Below are positions 7,562 through 61,560 of a DNA stretch of 63,933 bases, piece by piece. The notes beneath the pieces are model-generated. The model was not told the origin of the DNA. It ran no database searches and saw only the letters and a program-made list of their open reading frames with translations. The DNA is from Carcharhinus longimanus. Taxonomy: Eukaryota. The DNA lies in the NCBI GenBank assembly GCA_030264375.1, contig JASCQW010000061.1:53112888-53176820 (forward strand), read 5' to 3'. The position numbers were made by a program, and so were the translations under genes. Positions within the stretch are counted from its first letter, which is position 1; each line of letters begins with the position of its first letter.

Positions 7562-9277
7562 GTAAGTAACAATTCTGAATAAATCTATTATCATACAATT
7601 GATTTTTCTATGGAAGAAGCTCATTGAATAGGGTTGAGTTGAGATGAAAACCTGGAAATATCCATCAACAATGGCATCCCAATCAAAATGCCAGCCATTT
7701 GAGCTTTCCTGATAGCTGTGTCACCAGAGGTACCATTAAGGTAGGAGTTGACTGCTCAGTCCATATTGGACAGAATGGTTTTCATGCCTTATGCAAAGTC
7801 TTGACAGAATTGGAACTGTAATCTTCTATGCTGTGACATTGCACACAAGATCACTGATGGACTATCCAATGGTATCAATTACTAACACCTTGACAGGATG
7901 TGACTAGTCCATCAAGTGATATTCTCATCTTCAAATAAAGAACCCATAATATTGTATTACCAATCCTTGTTCCGTGATTGGAATGTTCATGTTGAAGATA
8001 ATAATGTAACATGGTGGCAGCATGGTTTAGAAGATTTGACTGAGCAGAATATAAGCCTTAACCCTTCCGCATCCAGCAGAAGAACAAGTTTGCTGGAAGT
8101 GAAACAACTGTAAAGAATTCACTCTGTAGAAGTGATTCTGCAGCTCTGTCGGAATCCAACATACCATACCTTTGTTCTGGGATCATGCCTCGCTCCAAGC
8201 AGCAGGCACCAGTCCCAGTAAGAATGATTGAATTTGGGAGAGCTTAGTTGGTATAACTCTACATGCTGTGTAATTTAAGCAGGAACAGAAATTAAGTAGC
8301 TGACACTGAAAAGTTTAACTTTAAGCTGAATTCACAGACCAGAGAGAGACTCCATTACTTATTGTCCATACAGGGGGTCTGTGGATGATCAAACACAAAA
8401 GGCTGGCTGGAAAGAAGAATCCATCCAGCAACAGCTCCAAGCAGCCAAAAGGAGCCTGTAGGAAAAACTTTTTTCACTGCTCAATTCTTCTTTTGAAGTC
8501 TGCAGTACAAATTAGCAACTAAATCACTGGGCAGTGCTTACCATTAGCCAGCGATAAATCAGAAAGTTCTCAATAGTGTCACTATTGCAGTCAAGCAGCT
8601 ATGACCAGCTAACGTACTGCAACTTAGAACTAAATTAACTTTAGAAGAGCTGTCAGAACAGTCATCTACAGTTCCGGAAGTGTTAACAATCCTGCAAAAA
8701 GCTAAATGATGGCCATACCATTTCCAACATCAAATTGGAAGGCAGCAGACCTCCTGTCTGAGTTTACTTTGTTCCAACAATGTGTTAAACTGTATTTTCT
8801 GGATCTTGATATTTCAGCACCAAATAAACAAGCCATTACTATTATAAATCTCATGATGCGTACATGAGAGCGGGGCGGTGGGGGCATGCTGAAAGGAGAT
8901 TGCACGGGAGGTTGGAGGGGAGAGTTGGTGAGGTTGGTGTGGGAATTGGAGGAATGGAAGGGCATTGGGGGTGGTTGGAGGAATTATAGAGGGAGGTTAG
9001 AGAGAGTTGGGGGAGAATTAGGTAAGGAGTCAAATTGCTTAGTGAATGTTGTGACTTGTTTGTAGCTACTTTCCTAACATTACTTGATTGCTCTGTGATT
9101 AATTATCCAGACAGAATTAGCATTGGTCCTTTAAATTTCATCATTGTTACTGTTACTCTGATTACTCCATGCAGGTGCCATGAAAAAAAGTCAAAACCGA
9201 CATTTGTACGGTCCCTTTCGCTATGTCTTAAATCACTGTACAGCCAATTAAGTACTTTTGAGTTGTATTCACTGGTA

Positions 9278-9528
9278 CGCAGCACGGTTTCATTAAAGGG
9301 AAGTCGTGTCTGACAAATTTACTGGAGTTTTATGAGGATGTGTCTAGGGCGGTNNNNNNNNNNNNNNNNNNNNNNNNNNNNNNNNNNNNNNNNNNNNNNN
9401 NNNNNNNNNNNNNNNNNNNNNNNNNNNNNNNNNNNNNNNNNNNNNNNNNNNNNATGATCTTATTGAATGGCGGGGCAGGCTCGAGGGGCCAGATGGCCTA
9501 CTCCTGCTCCTATTTCTTATGTTCTTAT
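9278..9528 (+). mobile_element. Young CR1 LINE, interior hidden by a 100-N gap
   Basis: QHGFIKGKSCLTNLLEFYEDVSRAV (RT motif) before the gap; 3' UTR ...ggcctactcctgctcctatttcttatgttcttat after it. An older second tail follows at ~9535-9615. Confidence 0.9.
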
Positions 9529-10699
9529 AACAGGTCATGTTATCAAATGACAGAGCAGGCTCGAGGGGCTGAATGGCATTCTCCTGCTCCTAATGCATAT
9601 GTTCATATGTTGTTCTTGGATGGATGAGATGAACTGGGCTAGGTGGCCTTTGTATCCATAATTATGTGAACAGTGGGTAGAATGATAACTCAAGTTTTGT
9701 TTATTTTGTTACTAATGAAAACGGGCTTTGGGAATGGGATTACCAGGGGAAGTGTGCATTGGGCTCTCAGTGAATCAGTAATCTGCTTTACACTGCACAT
9801 GATTCACAAGAGTCATTCCTGTTCACTTCATTCATGTACTTTTGTCAACTTACCTATTATCTCGCTCTATTTCGGTATGTTTGAGTTGTTTTGATCCTGG
9901 AAATATCATGTTGCTTAGTAGATATTGAAAATATATTGTAGTGAGAAGCAGCAATAAACGGAGTCTGCCAATGTACTGATCAAGAAAGCACAGTAACAAT
10001 TGTGAATGATTCAATCTTTGCCCTCTGGCATCTTAAAAGTTGTGTTGCACAGAGATACCTGGGAGTACCAATGCTTCTCACTGACAGTGGAGTTTTATGT
10101 TGTACAATCATTCCACTTTGTTGCTCAGGAATCATTTGATCTTCCTGCCCTGTGAGGTTACTGATCAGTAGAACTCAATTACATCCCTTATATGAAATAA
10201 TTTTCCTGAATAATATCATGCATCCAAGAAGAAGAAACCCACCTTCTGGTTCTGCAGAATGGAAAAAATCTTGTACAGTTTATTTGGGTTCAATCTTTCT
10301 CCAAATATGAAATTACTGTCACCATGTCCATCTGATGCAATGTGCAGAACATTTAGTGTGGGTTGAGACAATTATGGGAATCAATCTTATTGCCTACAGA
10401 GTTATAAACAACTAATGTGATATTTTCCTGTCAAATTAACAGTTCTAAAATTTGTACTTTCTGGTTTGTTTAATAGTTGCAGTGGGATCACCTGTAGGGC
10501 ACTCACAAACTAATACTGCATTAGATGGTTGCTACATTTAATATAATGCTGCGTATAAAATACATTGATATTTGCAACCCAATGCCAACAATGGGTGTCA
10601 TCATTTTACTAGGATCTTTCTGTGATTGTTGAATCTTAAAAGGAGAAAGAATATCACGCATGATTGAAGTGAGACATATTAAATTGCTGGTAGAATGGG

Positions 10700-12549: not shown

Positions 12550-13283
12550 GATGAAGCCATTGAGGAGTACAGTGAAAGTAGGAAGGAACTAAAATATGGA
12601 ATTAGGAGGGCTAAAGAGGGCCATGAAATGTCTTTCACCAATAGGATCAAGGAGAATCCCAAGGCTTTTTATGCATATATTAGGAGCAAGAGGGTAGTAA
12701 GAGAAAGAGTAGGCCCACACAAGGACAATGGAGGGAAGTTATGTGTGGAGCCACAGGAAGTGGGTGAGGTCCTTAGTGAGTACTTTTTATCAGTATTCAC
12801 CAAAGGGAAGGACATGACGGATGTTGAGGTCAGGGATATATGTGTTAAATCTCTAGAGAATGTCAATATTGAGTGTTGAGTATCCTAAATTGCATTAAGG
12901 TAGACAAATCCCTGGGGCAGGATGAGATCAATCCCATGTTACTGCGGGAGGGAAGGGGAGAAATAGCCTGGGCCTTTAACAGGTATCTTCACATCCCCTT
13001 TGACCACAAGCGATGTTCCAGAGGAATGGAGAATAGCCAATGTTGTTTAAGAAAGGAAGCAGGGATAATCCAGGAAATCATAGGCCAGTGACCCCGACAT
13101 CAGTGATGGGGAAGATTTTTGGAGAAGATACTGAGGGACAGGATATATATTCACATTTGGAAGAAAACGAACAGTTAGTGACAGGCAGCATGGTTTTGTA
13201 CGGGGGAGGTCATGTCTCACTAACATAATTGATTTTTTTGAAGAGGTGACAAAGTTAATTGATGAAGGAAGGGCTGTAGATAT
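12550..13283 (+). mobile_element. CR1 ORF2 fragment (5' piece of a multiply interrupted copy)
   Basis: IKENPKAFYAYIRSKR, LFKKGSRDNPGNHRPV and QHGF motifs, with frameshifts. Confidence 0.9.
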
Positions 13284-14002
13284 GGACCTGGAGATAGTAG
13301 ATCCATTGGTGTTTATTTTCTAAAATTCTGTGGATTCTGGAATAATTCCTAGAGATTGGAGGGTAGCTAATGTAAGCCTGCTATTCAAAAAGGGGGATAA
13401 AGAGAAAACAGGGAACTATCAGTGAGCCTAACGTCGTATTGGGCAAGTGGCTGGAGTCCATAATGAAAATTTCATAACTCAGCATTTGGAAGGTAGTGGT
13501 ACAACCAGACAAAGTCAGAACAGAGTTACAAAAGGGAAACCAAGCTGGAATTCTTTGAGGGTGTAATTCGTAGAGTTGACTGAGGAGAACCAGTGGATAT
13601 AGTTTATTTGGGCTTTCAAGAGGCTTTCAACAAGGTCTCACATAACAGGCAACTATGTAACGTGAGTTTGCAGGTAATGTCGTCAGATGGATAGAAAGCT
13701 AGTTAACAGATAGGAAGAAAAGAGCTGGCATAAATGATCTTCTTCTGATTTCTAGTCAGTGACTAGTGGGGTTCTGCAGGGATCTGTGCTAGGACCCCAA
13801 ATTTCACATTAGATATCAATGATTTGGAAAAGGGAATTGAACGTATTATCTCCAAATTTGCAGAAGATACGAAGTTGGGTGAGAGGATGAGCTGTGAGGA
13901 GGATGCAGAGATGCTTCAGCATGATTTGGACAAGCTGAGTGTGTGGACATCTGCATGGCAGATGCAGCATAATGCAGATAAATGTGAGCCTATCCACTTT
14001 GG
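13284..14002 (+). mobile_element. Second CR1 RT fragment nested in the first
   Basis: Restarts upstream (DWRVANVSLLFKKG) and runs to ISKFAEDTKLG...KCEPIHFG, ending at the gap. Confidence 0.85.
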
Positions 14003-14327: not shown

Positions 14328-14412
14328 GAACAGGTCCCACCTACCCCAATACTGATGCCAATGCCCCATAAATTCAAACCCATTCCTCCCACACCAATCC
14401 CTGAACCATCTA
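14328..14412 (-). mobile_element. CR1 ORF1 (SGNH esterase-like) fragment
   Basis: WFRDWCGRNGFEFMGHWHQYWGRWDLF, typical of the esterase domain in CR1 ORF1. Confidence 0.8.
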
Positions 14413-15303
14413 GGGGTGTTCTGCATGGATCAGTGCTGGGAATTCTATTGTTTGTAGTTTATATAAATAATTGGGAGAAAAATATGGATGGTCCAATTAG
14501 TAAGTTTGAGGATGACACAAAGATTGCTGGAGTTGCTGATACTGCTGGGGATTGTCAGAGGATATAACAGAATATAAACAGATTGGTGACTTGGGCACAA
14601 AAATGACTGATAGAGTTTAATCCAGACAAATGCGAAGTGATGCATTTTGGAGGATCAAATTTAGGTTTGAACAATGCTGTAAATGACAGAACCCTTTGGA
14701 ACATTAACATCCAGTTCCCTAAAAGTGGAAACATAGGTGGCCAAGGGAATTAAGAAGGCACATGGCATGCTTGCCTTCATTAGTCGGGGCATTGAGTACA
14801 GGAGTTGGCAGCTATATAAAAGCTTGGTTAGACCACATTTGGCATATTGCAGCAGTTCTGGTCATCACACTACCAGAAGGACATGGAAGATTTGAAGAGA
14901 GCAAAGAAGATTCACTAGGATGTTGCCTGGTCTTGAGGCTGTTGGCTGTGAGGAGAGGTTGAAAAACTCGGATTGTTTTCACTGAAAAGACGGAGGCTGA
15001 GGGGAGAGCTAATTGAGGTCTACAAAATAATGAGAGGCATGGACGGTGGATAGTCAAAGGCTTCTTGACCAAGGGTGGAAGTGTCAGTTACAAGGGGGCG
15101 CAGGTTCAAGGTGAGAGGGGGAAAAAGGGAGATGTGCGGGGGAAGTTTTTCTCGCAGAGACTGGTGGGTGGCTGGAACTTGCTGCCAGAGGATGTGGCAG
15201 CAAATTAGTAACATTTAAGAGGCACCTGGAAGGGTACATGAATAGGGAGGGAATAGAGGGATTAGGACTGAGTAAAAGCAGAAGACATTTTTTTAAGTTT
15301 AGC
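14413..15303 (+). mobile_element. CR1 RT-to-3'UTR piece; its tail resumes at 19923-20022
   Basis: GVLHGSVLG and SKFEDDTKIAG (degenerate FADD), ORF2 end and UTR. The last 30 nt are identical to 19923-19952. Confidence 0.88.
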
Positions 15304-15403
15304 NNNNNNNNNNNNNNNNNNNNNNNNNNNNNNNNNNNNNNNNNNNNNNNNNNNNNNNNNNNNNNNNNNNNNNNNNNNNNNNNNNNNNNNNNNNNNNNNN
15401 NNN

Positions 15404-15567
15404 ATCACGGATTCTAACATTTTTCCTACAACAGACGTTAAACTAACCGGCCTATAATCCCCCGCCTTTTGCCTGCCACCCTTCTTAAACAACGGCATTA
15501 CATTAGCCGTTTTCCAATCTTCCGGCACTTCCCCGGAATCCAGCGACGTTTGGAAAATAATCACCAA
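15404..15567 (-). mobile_element. Young, CpG-rich CR1 fragment running into a gap
   Basis: Uninterrupted IFQTSLDSGEVPEDWKTANVMPLFKKGGRQKAGDYRPVSLTSVVGKMLES. Confidence 0.9.
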
Positions 15568-15569
15568 GG

Positions 15570-16080
15570 TCTCATCCCTTTGTACTGAAGTCCTAGTAGT
15601 GTTTTATTTTGCTCACTCTCAAACATTAGATTGAACTCAATCATTATCTAATCTCTATTAGATAAATGCTCACATTCATTAGCCTGTTAGCTAAATTTGA
15701 CACATTTCTCAGTACTAAATCTAATAAAGCATGCTTCCATTTTGGCTTTCAGACATATTTTTGCAGAAACAATCCCAGAAAACCACCTCAAGAAATTTGC
15801 TGATTTTCCAATGTGTATTAGTCTACTTATGCTAATCCACATGAAATTTTAAATCCCCCCCTTAAATTGATCCTGCTTTTCTGCATGTTTGTTTAATCTT
15901 TGCATTTAACCAATCTACCATTTCAGCTTCTCCTATGGCTCTTTCCATAGTTGTCAATCCTTTTCTATTTATTAATTTTGCCCATAAAATCTCCACTGCC
16001 TTTTTGCCCCTCATTATATCCTGTATAATCATAGAAGTGATTTCATTCTTAAAGGTTACTTACTCCTCCTCTATGCCATT
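15570..16080 (-). mobile_element. Old CR1 AP-endonuclease region remnant
   Basis: Minus-strand gggggatttaaaatttcatgtggatt (GDFN-like) and decayed downstream motifs. Confidence 0.5.
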
Positions 16081-16519
16081 TCCTGACATAGACTCAATGG
16101 ACTGAGCATCCTCCTTCTGTACTGTAATGACTATCTGGTTGGGTTATTCATTGGAATTGCCTTAGAGTGCAGAGAAGGTCACAATATCACATGGGGTGCA
16201 GTTGCATAGATTTCCGATCTCATTAGACCTGGTCCAAACTTACTGGCAAGTCAAATGTGACCAGCGTACATTTTTGGAAAAACGGCAACTTAGAGGGAGC
16301 TAAGGTAATTAAAGTTGTAATTGAATGGTATGTTACAGGCTCATTCAAATGTTCCAGCAAGTGAGTAGTGGCTACAGGGCTAAGAGGTCCAGCAAAAATA
16401 TCAGCGTGGCAATGGGGTAGCAGCTGAAGTAGTTGCTGTACTTGGCAGCTTTGTGTGTTCAGGCAACGTGCCTTCACAAGAAAAATAGTGAAGCATGCCC
16501 AGCATGATTTGTATCTCCT

Positions 16520-17700
16520 TGTTCTACGACCAAAATGAATGATTTCCCATTTCCGTATATTGAATTTCAATTGCCACTTGTCAGTCTATTCCATCAGCCT
16601 GTCCATGGCCCATTGAAGCTTACCACTATCCTCCTCCATTCACAACGCATCTAAGTTTTGTGTCATCCACAAGCATTGAAATTGTCCCCTGTTCGTCCAA
16701 GTCTAGGTCATTAATACATGTCAAGAAAAGTAGGCGTCCAAACGTTGACCCACGGGGAACATCATCATACGTCTTTCTCCATTCTGAAAAACAATTATTT
16801 ACTACTACTCCATTGTTACGGTTGTACAGCGCTCTGGTGAGACCACACCTGGAATACTGTGTACAGTTTTGGTCTCCTTACACAGGAAGGACATTAGAAA
16901 CATTGGCATTAGAAATAATTCAGAAAATGTTCACTTGACTGATTCCTTGGATGAGGGAGTTATCTTATGAGGAAAGGTTGGACAGGTTGGTCCGTGTCCG
17001 TTGGAGTTTAGAAAAGTGAGAGGTGATCTTATAGAAAGAGATAAGATCTTGATGGGACTTGATAAGATGGATGCTGAGAAGATGTTTTCCCTTGTGGGAG
17101 AGATCAAAACTAGAAGATACAGTTTAAAAATAAGAGGTCTCCCATTTAAGACAGCGATGAGGAGATTTTTTTTCTCCAAGAGAGTAACTAAGCTGAGATT
17201 TTCTGCCCTAGATGCAGTGACGGCCGGCTACGTTGGATAAATTTATACATACTAAGGGAATGAAAGGTTACAGGAGATAGATAGGAAAGTAGGGTTGAGG
17301 CCACAATTAGATCAACCATGCTCTTAACAAATGACAGAGCAAGCTACAGCTGCCAAATGGCCTACCCCTACTCATCATTTGTGTTTCTTTTATTCTTTCA
17401 TGAGACATGGGTATCACTGGCAAGGCCAGCATTTGTTGCCCATCTCTAATTGCCCTTGAGAAGGTGGTGGTGAGCTGCCTTCATCAACTGCTGCAGTCCA
17501 TGTATGTTTGTATGTTTCTATCACTCAGTCAATTTCTTATCCGTGCTGCTACTGTCCTTCTTACTCCATGAGCTCTAACTTTGATGTAAACCTGCAGCAT
17601 GTCACTTGATCAAACAGCTTTCTGAAGTCCATATACATTCATCAACCACAATACATTATCAGCCTTTTTCAGAAAACTCAAACAGGGTGGTTCGGCCTGA
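16520..17700 (-). mobile_element. Nested CR1 cluster
   Basis: A minus-strand RT fragment (16520-16810, resuming at ~17510) is split by a plus-strand CR1 3' end (16811-~17510; LYSALVRPHLEYCVQFWSP). The tail of that copy is itself interrupted by another LINE tail at ~17385-17500. Confidence 0.8.
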
Positions 17701-17854
17701 TGAGATTCATTTATAAACAATTCCGGGTGCAAACTTGGGAATTCACTTTTCCAGGCTGACCCTGGCATTCCAAGAACATAGGATAAAATAAATTAATGCT
17801 GACAAAAATCATTTGTCACACAGACAATGGAAAACGTCGTATGGAGGAAAGATG

Positions 17855-18790
17855 ACAGGTAATTCTCCCAAAAAAATTCGAAGTGCTGAATTTGCATAAA
17901 AACTGGAGAAACTCCCATTGGATTGTTTTAGTGGGATTTTCAAAATGAATCTCCCACAGTCTGGGCACTGCAGAGTGCCCTTGGGAGACTCACATTGTAA
18001 ATCTGTGGGCAGGGCCTATTCCCAATGGAGAGGCCAGCACCACAGCGCTGAGCAGGCCGTTATGCATGCGCCGTACTGTCAACACTAAGATTGGTGCATG
18101 CGCACTGGCCCCACACTGCAAGCCTCCTCCAGCAGTCCTGACCACCAACCCCCCCCGCAACCTCCCGGTCCCCCTCCCTCTCCCCCTCCCAGATGGCCAG
18201 CCCCGATCACTCTCTTCCCTCCCTCTGACACTGATCCCTATGCAGAGCTGCAGTGGGATCCCCCACCACCACTGATCGCCCCTGCCATAGTCCCTGCCCC
18301 CTCTGATCCCACCACCTTGGCACTGCCCAAAGCTCTGTATGTTCCCCCTGGGCATTGTCAATTTGCCCCTTGGGCCGTGCCAGGGGCCAAGCTGGCACTG
18401 CCAGCAAGGAAATGTCCCAGGGGCACACCCCCTCACCCTTTAGCCTTGACCTCCTGTGGGGCCTTCACTCCAGTGGGATCAACTGCCTGTTCCCCGATCA
18501 TGGGGAGCAGGAATAAACCCCACTGGAGAGAACCAGTCCTGGTGGCGGGGAAGGGGGTGGTTGGGGTGCAGAAGCTAGTGAGCTTGGAGACTTCAGTCCC
18601 AGGCCTGCTAATCATATGTAAATGCAGATTTAAATATGGAAATCAGCTTGTGCCAATTTCCAGAGTGGAGCTAATGATTCCAAAAAACTTGAAACTGGAG
18701 ATGTGCAGAGGCAGTGGTGCCCAGTGGAGAGCCTGCTAAATGGCCTCCACTGATGTCTGCTGGCCCTGGGCTTGATGAGTCACCCCCTTA
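17855..18790. mobile_element. GC-rich non-autonomous DNA-transposon-like element (Harbinger/MITE type)
   Basis: Abrupt GC/C-rich block starting ggtaattctccc and ending gagtcacccc. Its Pro/Gly-rich ORFs are compositional. Confidence 0.5.
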
Positions 18791-19922
18791 GGTTAGGTGG
18801 AAGTTACAACCTTTTGTAAGCAGTAGCAGCCTCAAAAGCTTGAATGTGTAATGGCTTCTTATGAGGGAGGAAAGAAGGACTTGATCTGTTGTTGGCTTCA
18901 GGTTAGAATTCAATGACATCATCAGCAACTAAAGCATTGGGGGAAGAAGGCAATGGCTCTGGAGTATCACTATTACCTTGGCATCCTACCTGTGTAAAAT
19001 AATTTTGTAATGGCAGGTAATGGTTCAAATGTGTGTTATATATAAAAGTCTGACAGTCTGCCAATTGAAAACAAGGAAATCAAGCTGTTAACGGAACAGC
19101 TTTCACACTGATGTGTTAAAGCAGTGTCTTTATGTAAATTGAATTATATAACTGCGGAATCCCCTGCTGAAGCCTTAAATGGATTGAATCCCACTAGTAG
19201 TTTGAAAATTAGCAATGACAAACCCATTGGTGGATAAAGCTGCTGCGGAAATATTGCTTATGAAATGAAAGATTGAAGTGCATCCTTTCAACACCAAGTT
19301 TTACTTCCTGCACGGTGGCCAACCTTTTCTTGGGGCCCATGAGACAGACTATATTGCCTCAGGCTCTTAGCATTTGTATTCTGCAGACAAGCACATTGTA
19401 TCACTTGGAGTATCCTCTTCATCGACACATTCCAACCTGCTTTCCTGCCTTAACATGTCTCATGTGCCTGTTGACAGATAAGACTGGAAACTTTTTGGAG
19501 AACACATTTTCAAGTACTGCACCATTTCACACTGTGCTCAATTAAACTAACGGAGTAAAATATTTCTTTAAAATGCGTAACAACCTCTGATATTAATAAA
19601 ATATGGGCTCCAGAACATCACTTTCTTGTCGTAACCTGCCTATTAATACACATCCATGTTTTTGGCTTTGGATATATTTCCCTGTTTCTCTTGTTACTTA
19701 TTGTGCTGGCACACTGTACTTTTCTTAACTCAGTCCAATTTCCTCTCCAAAAGAATAGCTTAACACTTTCGCTTGAGTATGGTTTCCAATGGCAGCCAAT
19801 CTCTCTTTGTTGTTATTCATTTCCAAGACTTGACTGTGAACATTACAAGCCTATCCAACTCTGGAGGATATCTCAACTAATTAGATTATTTTTTATGTTG
19901 TGTCCACATGTGTATTGTGATC

Positions 19923-20022
19923 AAAAGCAGAAGACATTTTTTTAAGTTTAGCTAGGGTATCATGACCAGCACGGGTGTGGAGCAACTGTACATACATTTT
20001 ATTTGTTTATTGTTCTTTGTTC
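19923..20022 (+). mobile_element. CR1 3' tail, continuation of 14413-15303
   Basis: tagggtatcatgaccagcacgggtgtggag...tgttctttgttc, followed by an L2-like tail to ~20200. Confidence 0.75.
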
Positions 20023-21374
20023 ATTGCCACTTCCAACGTTACTACCCTTTTTATTATAAAAAGGCTCCTTAAGACCCTGCTTTATGATCAAACCTTTACA
20101 ATCCTTCAACCCTCATTTCTCATTCCAAGGATGTCTACTCTTTGTCCACTGTGCTGTAAAGCATTTAGAGATTGCTATGCGTACGAGGAACATTTCAAGT
20201 GTACAAATGATTATGCTGGATTCTTAATATGTACAGAAGGGAATGCAAGGTGACTTGCTTTATTGACAATGATTCATATTCGTGCTACACTTGTTCAACC
20301 TTGGTTCAATGATAGCCGTCCCACTCATAAGTCCACTGTCATCAAAATTATGCCTGGCCCACAAGTAACATGAAGAACAAACTTTATATTGATTTTGTGA
20401 AGGTAATTTATTTACAAATTGAGAAAATGTTCCATGCACCCATTAGTATAGACAAAGGAAGCAGGTTTAATGAGTGGTAATCTTTAATGGAATGCAGTCA
20501 ATTAAGGGTAAAGTCTGAATAATAGAGTGCGGTTTCTCAAACCTTTCGAGCCACTGAGTCCCGTTACTTCCCAAGTTCATCGGGAAACCCCAAGCATTCC
20601 CATAACGTCAGTGTCCTTTTTTTGCCATAAAATAAGTGTGAACACTGAAATCAAATGTAAACAACTCTTTCCTAGCAATATCTATGTGTAAATTAGGAAT
20701 TGGCACACAATCACAAATATATTCACCAGCTACATGGCCCCCTCACATTAACCCCTACCCAAGCTCCTCTCCCATGCCCCTCAACATTAACCCCTGGAAG
20801 TAGTATCCACTTTGGGAGTAGGTAATCTGTTAATAATTTAAAAGTTTGCATATTAAAAAATACTTCATTCTTATCTTTAGACATTGTTAATGGGAGGAAT
20901 GATGTTGGAAAGTGGATTGTCATATTGGACATATGCACCTCTTTCCCTCACACACAAATGTACGCACACACGTCACTTCCGCACACATTCACCTCATTCC
21001 CTCACATAAACACTCATGTCTTTCTCTCACGTTCACACATACACCTCTCACACACACTTACTTAACTCCTCTCTCTCACACACAACCTGAATGTTTCCAA
21101 GAAATTAACCTAGCTGCATGATGCATTCTCACTTGCTAACAACCAGGATGGTTCAATGGTTGGCCAATGGATGCTCCTGTACCATTAGCTCTCAGGTATT
21201 ATTTGCTCCCATTTGTCCTTGTTCTACTTCAAGTGCTTCACTTCCAGTCTGCTTTCAAGTGACTGTGCACGCAAAAGGATGTTTGAAAAATGCTTGCTGT
21301 AGGAGGTAAATAAAAATTGGTTTTCCCAAAAATTATTCCATATGTACATTATTGATAAAAATTTCAGGCATAGT

Positions 21375-42259: not shown

Positions 42260-43332
42260 ACAAAAACAGAAAATGCTGGAGGTCTGGCAGCATCTGTGGA
42301 GAGAACACAACACCGTCTGGATGACTCTTCATCAGAGCTGAAGACAACAGAAAATAGGATAAGATTTATCCTGTTGTGGTGACGAGACTGTGGAGACTGG
42401 ATAGATGGCCAGAAGCTGGTGGAGATGGGAGAGATTGACAAAAATGTCACAGACAAAAAGACAAAGGGAATGTAAATGCTGGTGATCATGGCTAAGAAGT
42501 GTGCTGATAGTGGAATATTAAGAGATAGAATGTGTCAGTGGCGGAACAAAGATAAACAGTGTGACAAAAGACAACCTGAAACAGGGAACAGATGGTCCTC
42601 GTGGGGTGGGGGAGGGAAAACAGTGGTAAGGGAATAAAAATGGAAATCATTAAAAAATTGAAAAATAAAACACTGAGAGAAATGAAAATAAATTTATCAA
42701 TTAAATAAATTGATGGAAGTGGGGTGAAGAGAGGGGAGAGTTCATGGCCTAAAGTTGTTGTACTCATTGTTAAGTCCAGAAAGCTGTAAAGAGTCTAATT
42801 GGAAGGTCAGGTGCTGTTCCTCCAATTTGCATTTGGGTTCACTGGAGCACCAGTGAAGGACGAGCATGTGGACGTGAGAGCAGAATGTTGTGTTAGAATG
42901 GTAAGCGACAAGAAGGCCTGGGTCATGCCTGTGAATGGATCAAGGGTGTTCTGCAAATCGGTAACCTAGTTTGCATTTGGTCTCTCCGGTGTAGAGTAGA
43001 CCACATTGGAAGCANNNNNNNNNNNNNNNNNNNNNNNNNNNNNNNNNNNNNNNNNNNNNNNNNNNNNNNNNNNNNNNNNNNNNNNNNNNNNNNNNNNNNN
43101 NNNNNNNNNNNNNNNNNNNNNNNNNNNNNNNNNNNNNNNNNNNNNNNNNNNNNNNNNNNNNNNNNNNNNNNNNNNNNNNNNTCTTATTGAATGGCGGGGC
43201 AGGCTCGAAGGGCTAGATGGCCTACTCCTGCTCCTATTTCTTATGTTCTTATGTCAGTCCTGCTGAGATTTTGTAGCATTTTCTATTTTTGTTTCATATT
43301 CCAGCATCTTCAGTATTTTGCTTTTACCTTAG
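42260..43332 (-). mobile_element. Penelope-like element with GIY-YIG remnant and inverted termini, interrupted by a young CR1
   Basis: Minus strand 42900-43014 reads CFQCGLLYTGETKCKLGYRFAEH. Inverted arms at both ends; TSD tcattagtt (42251-59, 43333-41); CR1 tail at 43182-43252. Confidence 0.85.
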
Positions 43333-45599: not shown

Positions 45600-48500
45600 T
45601 GGGTGAATTAACATCATTGTGAACCTTCCACCCCCAAAACCTGTTAAAATGAAAAGTGATGTGTGGCAGAACTGGCAGATTTTTCACTTGCAACAGCAAA
45701 GTTATGAGGTAGCATCACATTTAATTAACAAGCTAGAAGAGATACAAATAGCCACACTTCTAACACTGCTGGGAAGAGGACTCTACAAATTGTATTCCAC
45801 CCTAAATCTATTGGACAACCAAAGGAAATGAACGACAGGGATGTTGAAAACCTTGCATGCATATTTTGAACCTCATGTTATTTATGAAAGATATGTATTC
45901 AACACTAGAGCTCCAAATGCAAACCAGCCCATCGAACAATATGTGAGTGCAGTAACACAGCTTGCAGAATCATGTGAATTCGGACAGCTGAACAATGACC
46001 TGACTAAAGATCCAATCTCCTTAAACCTACAAGACCTCAGGAAAGTAATAGACATGTTTCAAAATGCAGAGGTTGCAAATGTCAATTAGAGCAAATGTAT
46101 GGCAGAGCAAACCATTATACTGAGAAACATTGCAAGCTGTAAAAGCGCAGTTGTTGCAAACAAAGGGCAAGATGCAAGTACTGCAGAAGATATAATACAA
46201 AGGAAAAATGGAATTTCCCGTTGTAGAGAAAACAGTATTTTAATTACAAGAAGTCGAATCGTTTCATATACAAGTGTTTGCTAGAAAAGTGCAAACAAAC
46301 AATTACAGATGGCCACAAAAGAGTCTGATGAAGCACTAAGCATGATACAACAAGTTGGTTCAATCAAGTCTACAGATAATAAATGGTTTGGGAATGTTAA
46401 AATGATGAGCGCAGAGGGAGAGAATCATGCAAACAAGAAGTGTCAAATAGACATACGTATATCGTGCAACATAATAACAGATCTGTGCAAAGTGACTCAA
46501 CATGGCAATCCAAAAATGAACCCCTCGAAAGTAAAGTTGAAGCTATATGATTCAATACAATTCAATACAATAATATATGACACAATACTCTAACCAAGAG
46601 TTCAAATTAGTCTGAGAGCCCAATACAATGGCTAGAAGAGAGATCTAGAGTTCCAGATCATAGATGGGGTACAACAGCCACTTATCTCTGCTGAAGCAAG
46701 TCTAAAGCTTGAACTGGCAACCCTGAACATGCAAACGGCGATTCACAATGTGTCACAGCACACAAAACCATTGAGTGCCAAGATGTGTTGGGATGTCTAC
46801 CAGGAGAATAGCATCTAGATGTAGATGAAAATGTAAGATCCATTCAGCATCTGTCGAGAAAAGTAACAGCTGCCTTCAAGTCAATCCCAAAGGATAAGAG
46901 AGAAGAGCTGGAAAAGAAGGGAGTAATCAAGGAAGCGACAACTGCTGCAGACTGGATTAGCATCATGGTAGCAGTGAAACGACCTGGAAAACTGTGAGCA
47001 TGCTTAGACCCAAAGAATCTAAACAAAACGCTGAAGAGATCTTATTACCCCATGCCAACCATTGATGGAATATTTGCAATGCTCGCCAAGGCAAAGATCT
47101 TTACTATCCCAAATGCAAAGGATGGTAGCTGGCAAGTGAAGCTGGATGAAAGCAGCAGCGTTCTAACTACATTCTGGATACTGTTTGGGAGATATGTTGG
47201 TTGCACATGCCGTTTGGCATTTCCATGGCTCTAGANNNNNNNNNNGATAGTTGGTGACCTCCCCAGAATGGAAGTCAGAGTGGATGATCTGCTTTTCTAT
47301 GGATGTCGAGACACAATGCAACAAGTCATGGCTGACCATGATCAGAATTTAATATGGTTGCTAGCGAGACCTTACCAGATAAGCCTAAAGCTGAATAAGA
47401 AAAGATTGTAATTGAAAATGCCTGAAGTCAAGTACATAGGTCAGATCCTGACAAGGTGAAAGCTGTAACAGCAGACAACATATGCGAAAGCTGCACAATG
47501 ATTTGTTGGATTTGTGAACTTTTTAGCAAAATATTTGCTCGATTTGTGTGAACTCTTAAACAGGCCCACTGCCAAAGAGGTGCAGTGGTACTGGGGCACA
47601 GAACAAGAAGCAGAATTCACGAAAATCAAACAACTAGTGATGGCAGCAATGATGACGCCACCTTGCAGTCTGACACCAGTGAGACGGATCTTGGAGCAAC
47701 CCCGTTGCAGCAAGAACAACCAGTCACATTTACATCCAGGGCACTAACACAAACTGAATAGCACAATTGCTCAGATTGAGAAACAGTGCCTGGCTATTGT
47801 TTTTGCTTTTGAACATTTTCATCAGTACCTGCTTGGGAGAGACAAGGTAACAGTGGAATCCGATCACAAACCACTTCAAAGCATTTTTCTCAAACTGCTA
47901 CTTTCTGCTCAAAACCGTCTGCAAAGAATATAATTTTGTTTACAGAATATCATCTGGATGTCACATACAAGCAGGGGTAAACAGATGCAGATTGCAGACA
48001 TGCTGTCGAGAGCAATGCTCCCCCTGAGTACAGTTGCAGATGCTACAATCGAATGTGAAATCTTCCAGATTCATTGTGAAGCAGCAGCTCAATGTGATCT
48101 AGAAGTCATCAACCCAGCAAAGACATTGAATCTGATAGGAAGTGCATTGCTCAAATTCAACCAAATGCCCAACAAGATGCAACTCTCCAAGTGTGACAAG
48201 AAGTACTGATGAAAGGATGACCTGTGACCATCAGACACACACGTGGACACAACAGCATATTAAGTATACCAACACGAATTGACAGGCCAAGATTGCATCT
48301 TGTACAAAGCAAATAGAGTCATCATCCTGAAGGAGTTGAGAGGAGAAATGCTGAAGTGCATTCATGCAAATCTTTAAGAAATTGAATTGAGCAAAACATA
48401 AGCACATAGGCTAGTGCAATGTTTGTACTGAATACCAAACTAAACAAACTGGAGAACTTTTGATGACACACAAAATCCCAGACAGACCATGGATGAAGCT

Positions 48501-49060
48501 GGGAGTAGACCTTTTCACTCTCGCAGGAACTGTATCTGGTCACTGTAGACTACTATTCTGACAACTATGAGAATGACAACAGGAGAAATAGTAGAATGCC
48601 GATAAGCACACTTCAGTTGTTATGGCATTCCTGACATTGTCATGCGTGAGAATGGCTCTCAGTTCATGAGTGAAGAATTCAGCCATTTAACAAAGGATTG
48701 GGAAATTCAACGCTAAGCATCATTTCCACACTAATCCCAGTTGAATGGAAAGGCTGAAGCGGCAATAACAATTGCCGAAAGAATCTCAAAAAATTGAGCA
48801 AATCCAGCACAGACATGTGCAAGGCAACTCTCAAGTGGAGAGACAAGCTAATTTAAGGAATGGTAAGTGTTCCAATCCAAAGACGAATATCACACCTCAT
48901 CTAAACTACTTTTCAATAGTAAAAAAGACACAGAAACCAGAAATCGTAACAGGCATGGGTGAAAAAAAGGTGAAAAGTCAGAAAGCCAGATTTCATTTTG
49001 ACAAGACTGCCAAACCATTGCCAGAGCTGAGCATTGGAGAGCCAGTCAGAGTAAACTTGA
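45600..49060 (+). mobile_element. Decayed Gypsy gag-pol relic, 3' truncated
   Basis: gag (NLPPPKP...NWQIF; AYFEP..YERYVFN; LAESCEFG), RT (CLDPKNLN, PMPTID, WQVKLDE, TTFW, VDDLL), RNase H (AQIEKQCLAIVF, ESDHKPL, IADMLSRA) and integrase (PWMKLGVDLF, VDYYS, ENGSQF, NGKAE). Many stops and frameshifts. A possible 5' LTR remnant at ~45366-45452 is unconfirmed. Confidence 0.9.
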
Positions 49061-49808
49061 AACAGTTCATACTGCTACAATTGCTGTGTAACTACTTCAA
49101 CAAAAAGCACAAAGCCCCATTTGCAATTTCTCTACAATTCCTAATATTTTCCTCAGGACTGTAGAGAGAGCAAAGTTGAGAGGATCTTAAAAAGGAAATC
49201 CAGAATTAATGGCTTCCTGGATATTCTGCTAAAATAAAGAGGACATCTTTTATATTTTCTCAGTAAGTTTCCCTCCCGACAGGCAACGTGATTGAAGGAG
49301 TGGCCAGCTGCCTATTGGCTCCAAAAGCCTGCGGCACAGGGCAGGATCTGGAATAGAGAGGANNNNNNNNGGGGTTGCAAGAGCATGGAAATTACAGGAG
49401 AAGCAGAGACAGTGAAAGTCGAAGGGAGAAATTACAGGGGCAATGGATGTGGAGACTGAGGTCAGGTTTTGCAGACACAGGTTGAGGTACAATCATAGTC
49501 GATGGGAGATTGTGGAGGATGCCGAGACGGGGAGTAGGTGGGATTGGGGAGATTGACCCTATATGAGTTATTTAAACAAGTTTGTTGATTAAGCCCAGAG
49601 GAAATATTCCTACTCCTTCTGACTCATGAGCAATGCTACAACTGTACTTACCTTGTGGTTCTGGCCCTTCTCAACTCCTTTTACCTGGCAGCTGTCCTGT
49701 GTCCCAGGAAAACCTGCTGACATCAGTTAAAAATCAAACTCATTGCGCAGCCACCTGAGAGCAAATTGATCGCCTGCTCTCTGCTGGCTGCCAAACTGTT
49801 TAAAAAAA

Positions 49809-50032
49809 AAGAGAAAATGCTGGAAAATTTCAGCAGGTCTGGCAGCATCTATAAGGAGAGAAGGGAGCTGACGTTTCAAGTCTGGATAGCCCTTTATCAA
49901 AGCTTTGACGAAGTGCCATCGAAACGTCAGCTCTTTTCTTTCCTTACAGATGCTGGCAGACCTGCTTAGATTTTCCAGCATTTTCTCTTTTGGTTTCAGC
50001 TTCCAGCATCCACAGCAATTTGCTTTTATCCA
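49809..50032. mobile_element. Penelope-like inverted-repeat element with TSD
   Basis: Arms of ~90 bp around the palindrome tcaaagctttga; flanked by duplicated tgtttaaaaaaa. Confidence 0.85.
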
Positions 50033-53387: not shown

Positions 53388-53679
53388 CTGGGAGATTTGT
53401 TTATGGAGCCCAGAAAAAAGATTCATTCAATAATTATCAGCCTATGTCTTCACTGCTTTTGTGCTTTTTTATACTTATTGTCTTTTAGATTTTCAGAAGC
53501 CTTCATTGTAATTCTATTGTGACTGACTTCTTTCCAGCTACTCCAATATCAGTAGATCAGTACATCAGTAGATTTCCCCATGACCATTTCCCTTAGCTTT
53601 GTGCCTTATGAAAAAGGAAGAGAAGGACCAATGGGAGTGACCTTAGGCAGCTACAAAAGTAATTTTCCATTCTTCCTTT

Positions 53680-60727: not shown

Positions 60728-61560
60728 CTATTCCCTTCATAATCTTATGTGTTTCTATAAGATCTCCCCTCATTCTCCTGAATTCCAATGAGTATAGTCC
60801 CAGTCTACTTAGTCTCTTCTCATGTCAACCCTCTCAACTCTGGAATCAACCTAGTGAATTTTTTCTGCACCCCCTCCAGTGTCAACACATCCTTTCTCAA
60901 GTAAGGAGACCAAAATTATACTTAGTACTCCAGGTGTGGCCTCACCAGCACCTTCTGCAACAACATAACCTGTTTTAAATTCCATCCATCGAGCAAGAAA
61001 GGACAAAATTTCATTTGCCTTCCTAATTACTTGCTGCACCTGCAAACCAACTTTTTGTGATTCATGCACAAGGACAACAGGTCCATCTGCACAGCAGCAT
61101 TCTTCAATTTTTTACCATTTAAATTGTAGTCTATTTTGCTGTTATTCCTACCAAAATGGATAACCTCACATTTACCAATGTTGTACTCTACCTGCTAGAC
61201 CCTTTCCCACTCACTTAGGCTACCTATATCCCGTTGCAGACTTTCAGTGTCCTCCGCACACTTTATTCTACCACTCATCTTAGTGTCACCAGCGAATTTT
61301 GACACACTACACTTGGTCCCCAACTCCAAAGCATCTATGCAAATTGTAAACAATTGCAGTCCTAACATTGATCCCTGAGACACACCACTAGTCAATGATT
61401 GCCGACTAGAAAAACACCTATTTACCCCCACTCTTTGCTTTCTGTTGGTTAACCAATCCTCTATCCATGCTAATACATTGCTCGTAACACCGTACACCTT
61501 TATCTTATGCAGCAGTCTTTGGTGCGGCACCTTGTCAAATGCCTTCTGAAAATCTTCATC
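60728..61560 (-). mobile_element. CR1 RT fragment, same subfamily as 59205-60140
   Basis: ORF 61195..61575 DFQKAFDKVPH...SGVSQGSMLG...SKFAGDTK. Confidence 0.92.

Follow-up and report, generated by a model that had tools for sequence, protein, structure and literature searches.

We analysed a 63,933-nt window of the Carcharhinus longimanus genome assembly (GCA_030264375.1, contig JASCQW010000061.1, positions 53,112,888 to 53,176,820 of the forward strand), in which the 3' untranslated region (UTR) of a CR1-type long interspersed element (LINE) appears to be split by about 4.6 kb of other DNA lying between two identical 30-nt repeats. The apparent 30-nt target duplication was, in our analysis, very probably created by the assembly, with the first repeat being the end of a displaced contig. 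For the join between the intervening DNA and the UTR at 19922/19923, the explanation that we favour, with about equal measures of confidence and doubt, is a real rearranged allele, produced by a microhomology deletion of ~5 kb on one chromosome copy.

Below, A denotes the contig at 14328-15303, R the 30-mer, B the block at 15404-19922, C the sequence from 19953 on, and L the sequence leading up to 14002, while r is the initial 15-22 nt of R and O is the DNA that follows B-r in other sequencing runs. E' and E3 are young CR1-type elements at 15404 and 14328, respectively, and F1 is an old CR1-type family. The labels CR1, ORF1 (open reading frame 1), RT (reverse transcriptase) and 'shark-like' are putative assignments based on translations read by eye.

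Junctions of the 30-nt repeat in other sequencing runs

As the sequence-only reading of this stretch had reported, the 30-mers at 15274-15303 and 19923-19952 are identical and the first one abuts a gap of 100 N. Both the 30-mer and its initial 21 nt occur only at these two sites in the 2.68-Gb genome, with 0 control matches. In an alignment with 29 family copies, the UTR reads on through A and R and then through 19953-20023, which bears out the earlier statement that the UTR interrupted at 15303 continues at 19953. Accordingly, we annotate 14409-15303 (plus strand, 82-85% identity to family copies) as the 3' part of an old F1 copy that ends with R at the gap, 19923-20023 (plus strand), where A truly continues, as R followed by what is left of the F1 3' UTR with its tail, and 15274-15303 (plus strand) as a contig-end duplicate of 19923-19952. 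R differs from the family majority at 5 positions within its first 15 nt, and the exact 15-mer that starts R was found in 0 of the 29 copies. R is specific to its copy, and because of this the two tails are not independent insertions; the same counts make the alternative that the 30-mer is simply the subfamily consensus inapplicable.

Parts of the stretch are present in 21 public runs, X7-X16 containing a small share of it. We compared six runs from five studies (X1, X4, X5, X6, X17 and X18) as Logan contigs, which, according to their description, are made of 31-mers observed at least 2 times and then simplified (PMC12424806); such contigs can show the presence of a junction, not its absence. 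X17 may be the source of the assembly itself and is for this reason not treated as independent of the window: seven of its 8 listed pieces match the window with 0 differences, and the remaining one is a paralog. X1 differs from the window at ~1 in 100 letters and X18 at ~2 in 100.

In X1 and X18 a single contig carries 39 letters before 19923, followed by R and C, and the 30 letters that we read are the end of A. The corresponding contigs of X4 and X5 share one length, 849 nt, with 39-40 unaligned letters before 19923, and X6 has no coverage at this site. Thus A-R-C is one piece in two of the six runs by letters and in two more by length, so that the uninterrupted CR1 that the sequence-only reading had suggested looking for does exist in other animals. 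On the other side, the B contig of five of the six runs (X17, X1, X5, X6 and X18) tracks R only to 19937-19944 and then enters O, which is the same DNA in the four of these five runs whose letters were compared; the B contig of X4 ends at 19891. B was detected in all six runs, and no contig in them joins A-R to B or bridges B to C, including in X17. O has 0 matches in the window and the genome assembly at up to 3 mismatches, and its longest partial match in 264 kb is 12 nt. A-R-C and B-r-O are the junctions of the other runs, and because X1 and X18 differ from the window yet carry them, we regard these junctions as a shared older state. Contigs of X1 and X5 also cross 15569/15570, so the E'-B junction is common to these runs and the window.

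The block between the repeats and the gaps around contig A

Everything that the sequence-only reading listed for the block (a young minus-strand CR1 piece, older CR1 fossils, a GC-rich element and unique sequence) is present. Its old resident part, at 15570-19922, consists of decayed LINE fossils and unique sequence, includes a GC-rich repeat at ~17858-18790, and is a single-copy region found in every run compared. Among the 40 of 20662 candidates that were scored, B had a full-length match to itself only, so that the proposed search for a donor of 15570-19922 returned none; its other matches were to repeats, apart from a 519-nt stretch that recurs at 93% identity on C1, a different chromosome-scale contig. 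The last 445 nt of B have one match only in the genome. In X17 the contig depth, which does not equal copy number, is 9.32 for B and 9.3 for the C1 paralog, a weak hint against B being duplicated or confined to a single haplotype.

The 519-nt stretch (15679-16197, matching L002:1501-2016 on contig C1 of G000) is a composite of an old LINE fossil and a nested 3' stub, and X17 contains both the window and the C1 copies. In the window the fossil extends beyond the boundary of this stretch, so the derived copy is probably that on C1. By eye, the end of B resembled a fossil long terminal repeat (LTR) element, and a tblastn search for this found nothing.

B begins at the gap of 100 N (15304-15403) with E' (15404-15569, minus strand), a 5'-truncated piece of the RT region of a young CR1-type element, assigned by translation and 92-97% identical to the listed copies. 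There are 19 other 5'-cut young-element pieces like E'; sequence beyond the gap was available for 17, and 15 of these 17 show their own 3' end there. Unlike at those 15 gaps, the tail of E' is absent on the far side, at 15303, and the two flanks of this gap are not true neighbours. At its other end, A starts with E3 (14328-14408, minus strand), a 5'-truncated ORF1-region end of an element of the same young family as E' (96-100% identity to 39 other listed copies). The body of E3, which we estimate at ~4 kb, together with its tail cannot fit into the 325-N gap before it; a tail lies across the gap in 14 of the 26 scorable E3-type copies. One collinear match at 70% had placed 14328-14408 in the GC-rich element of B, and it was overruled by the 96-100% matches to young CR1.

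Both ends of A are therefore orphans at their gaps, i.e., both gaps are bad joins. Because A-R-C is contiguous elsewhere, B has no donor, and both ends of A are orphans, we interpret the first R as the end of a displaced contig rather than as a target duplication. The earlier suggestion of a local mis-join or mis-ordered contigs is thus supported for the gap at 15303/15404; for the join at 19922/19923 it is a live rival only, considered below.

The sequence-only reading had proposed that, in this animal, the UTR captured B or received it by a move, and that a 30-nt target duplication arose in the process. The empty A-R-C site in relatives and the copy-specific sequence of R are what this predicts. 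However, there is no second copy of B and no element tail after 15303, X17 itself retains B-r-O, and 15-22 nt of R already stand at the end of B in animals that lack the join; we consider such a capture very improbable. All of the routes proposed for it (LINE-mediated capture, 5' transduction, templated repair and a circle-mediated move) lack support, given that neither a donor nor a left junction was found and that B stands beside other DNA in animals whose CR1 is whole. Nor could a position of B inside the UTR be confirmed, as its left junction is a gap that lacks sequence support and contigs of other runs join 15273 directly to 19923. The 30-nt identity itself dissolves as a new target duplication, since the true homology between the end of B and the UTR is 15-22 nt and already ends B in five runs without the join.

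The surrounding assembly contains comparable irregularities. A 664-kb region has 59 gaps of 100 N, with end-to-end overlaps at six of them; others repeat a stretch that lies deeper in the facing contig. About 27 kb right of the window (90501-93268 in window-based coordinates, in L027), a contig is placed in reverse, and the 47 nt at its right end are the reverse complement of the end of the contig before it. Within the window, a contig start repeats 49 nt identically 1.2 kb earlier (59548 and 60728) in two related minus-strand CR1 copies, which are either distinct copies or a pair of alleles. Both deep look-alikes (at 60728 and beyond the right edge of the window) fall within repeats and could represent distinct copies. 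A 1.3-kb contig at 43182-44494 has young CR1 tails facing inward at both ends, and its flanks, read by eye, suggest that it is flipped in the scaffold.

Short homology and alternative origins of the join at 19922/19923

The B-C join falls in r, a 21-nt homology (19923-19943, plus strand) between the natural end of B and the CR1 UTR that forms its crossover zone. This homology measures 21 nt in X17, 22 nt in X1 and X5, and 15 nt in X6 and X18, i.e., less than 30 bp, and it is common to both parental junctions (A-R-C and B-r-O). A 15-nt core is common to all runs compared. In X17, X1 and X5 a T run lengthens this core to 21-22 nt; at the T run, X6 and X18 carry additional letters. The length of the homology at 19937-19944 does not track the overall distance of a run from the window, which suggests slippage or an old polymorphism in the T run. 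When the 17.4-kb region was resampled at order 3, 49 of 200 resamples contained exact direct repeats of at least 15 nt; the core is thus at chance level, and a chance core lengthened by slippage would be enough.

To account for these junctions, we infer L(..14002)-E'-B-r-O-E3-A-R-C as the common arrangement. One haplotype would have lost r-O-E3-A (~5 kb) when r was joined with R through microhomology; the assembler would then have gone from B to C along the deleted haplotype and parked contig A, left over from the other haplotype, in the gap preceding B. The proposed order is favoured because the 325 N and the 976-nt contig A sum to 1301 nt. The part of E' that is missing here, from E' to a point near the tail, is of similar length (~1200-1300 nt) in two of the three older copies that could be measured and 1857 nt in the third. 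It is also favoured because O should end at a repeat, and A starts with a young element that has no tail. In X17 the C contig begins exactly at 19923 and the O extension is 33 nt versus 83-94 nt elsewhere, as lower depth would give. A second route into R would cut a 31-mer contig at precisely that base, and a random break within the 39-letter path would land on 19923 about 1 time in 40, so this break suggests, indirectly, that B-R was present in the reads.

Several observations weigh against this deletion and the order that it assumes. The B-R-C join is absent from all contigs of the compared runs, X17 too. No continuation of the old LINE broken at 15570 was found within 664 kb, and no young-element tail, of E3 or of E', was seen at 14002, where the order would call for that of E'. 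Repeats of at least 19 nt arose in 0 of the 200 order-3 resamples. Within the 15-nt core, this CR1 copy has 5 differences from the majority and 28 of the 29 other copies have at most 4; the homology may therefore not be pure chance, and a copying event is possible. Finally, L contains the 5' part of an old F1 copy (12560-13281, plus strand; 80-82% identity to L050/L056, 76% to L064) that is probably the same copy as 14409-20023. Together, 12560-13281 and 14409-20023 resemble a single CR1 copy; by comparison with L050 and L064, a family stretch of 178 nt is absent between the first part and 14410. Such a one-copy appearance would imply that L, E3 and A are adjacent, that B belongs elsewhere, and that the join reflects a larger deletion or an inversion. 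Between the two parts lies a nested CR1-type piece of another family (13284-14002, plus strand), cut by the 325-N gap; we looked for its 3' part and for a second contig bearing the 14002 end, and found neither.

A larger heterozygous rearrangement between r and R, in which the usual place of B is elsewhere on the chromosome and the join marks one breakpoint of an inversion or of a deletion spanning tens of kb, would agree with this continuity of F1, which favours A following 14002 without B between them. The block left of A is correctly ordered across 9353/9454, and partnerless young-element tails exist at 43200 and 53327, as this rearrangement would allow. However, no partner flank for B was found: six of the 29 other tail flanks outscored the flank at 53388 (23.5). 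Nor did X17 show A-r-O, the reciprocal junction expected of an inversion, and we regard this origin as unlikely. Two inverted placements of B were rejected: between 9353 and 9454, where the two parts of an old repeat, split at 9274 and resuming at 9529, follow each other as they do in most of the 29 family copies, and ahead of the 53327 tail, where the flank scored no higher than other tails. The repeat at 9200-9770 is an old composite (SINE-like head, that is, resembling a short interspersed element, CR1-type tail and a conserved 3' part) that is split at 9274/9529 by a young CR1, and its layout recurs in 29 other copies. O has no significant match to this family (2 of 29 copies beat all 100 shuffles).

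Alternatively, both chromosomes carry B-r-O and A-R-C, and B-R-C is an artefact, either a library chimera or a gap-filling merge over the 21-nt overlap. This fits the lack of a B-C bridging contig in any compared run, the unbroken passage of the X17 B contig into O, and the local assembly errors nearby (the six end overlaps and the 47-nt reverse overlap described above). On the other hand, an 11.8-kb contig without gaps contains the join, the complete absence of O from the assembly is unexpected were O at full depth, and the X17 break exactly at 19923 suggests B-R in the reads. We view an artefact as possible, though less likely than the ~5-kb deletion.

A further reading, which we judge quite improbable, places B-r-O inside the old CR1 copy, between 14002 and 14409, in all these animals, as an ancient 4.5-kb insertion into the LINE. 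Just as improbably, the inserted block would end in a 15-22-nt copy of the LINE's own UTR, and a recent deletion in a single animal would have used that copy as its homology.

Two further features of the window lie apart from this locus: a decayed LTR-retrotransposon-like gag-pol fossil at ~45700-49050 (plus strand), recognised by eye, and an inverted repeat at 49802-49996 with 76-nt arms (88% identity) and a 43-nt spacer.

Related systems and meaning of the locus

False duplications at scaffold gaps, of heterotype or contig-boundary type, are described in a Vertebrate Genomes Project paper (10.1101/2020.05.22.110833). As in that account, a putatively haplotype-specific contig here lies beside the other haplotype across a gap and a boundary stretch is duplicated: one copy abuts the gap and is identical to the other, and independent runs hold the sequence once, joined directly. 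Unlike the duplications described there, the duplicate is 30 nt only, and one has to go 4.5 kb into the facing contig to reach its partner. A consists entirely of repeat, and the comparison was made by contigs.

Microhomology-associated structural variants have homology of <30 bp across the breakpoint (10.64898/2026.06.26.733778). The B-C join is similar in crossing over within 21-22 nt that both parental junctions share. It differs in that the allele is putative, its size and orientation are deduced, and its homology is no target duplication but a stretch that a LINE UTR has in common with unrelated DNA. Human L1 transductions or templated insertions with target site duplication, as presented in PMC10415145, likewise place foreign DNA between direct repeats with an empty site in relatives. 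In contrast to those, the present locus has no source copy, tail or left junction, and its right-end repeat is older than the join. The literature that we consulted consisted of general papers, in which we found no description of this type of case, and 10.1101/2021.04.13.439746 contributed nothing further.

The captured 4.6-kb insert is thus not a real feature, and what remains may be one ordinary structural variant. The locus is repeat-rich and looks non-coding, and a short-read scaffold here mixes two paths, which matters little in itself. It does provide a warning that, in this assembly, an identical repeat ending at a gap of 100 N mimics a long target duplication. The deletion allele, if true, would be one ordinary structural variant; only the reading in which a LINE received old DNA whose end was templated, if that were true, would be informative on repair-mediated capture.

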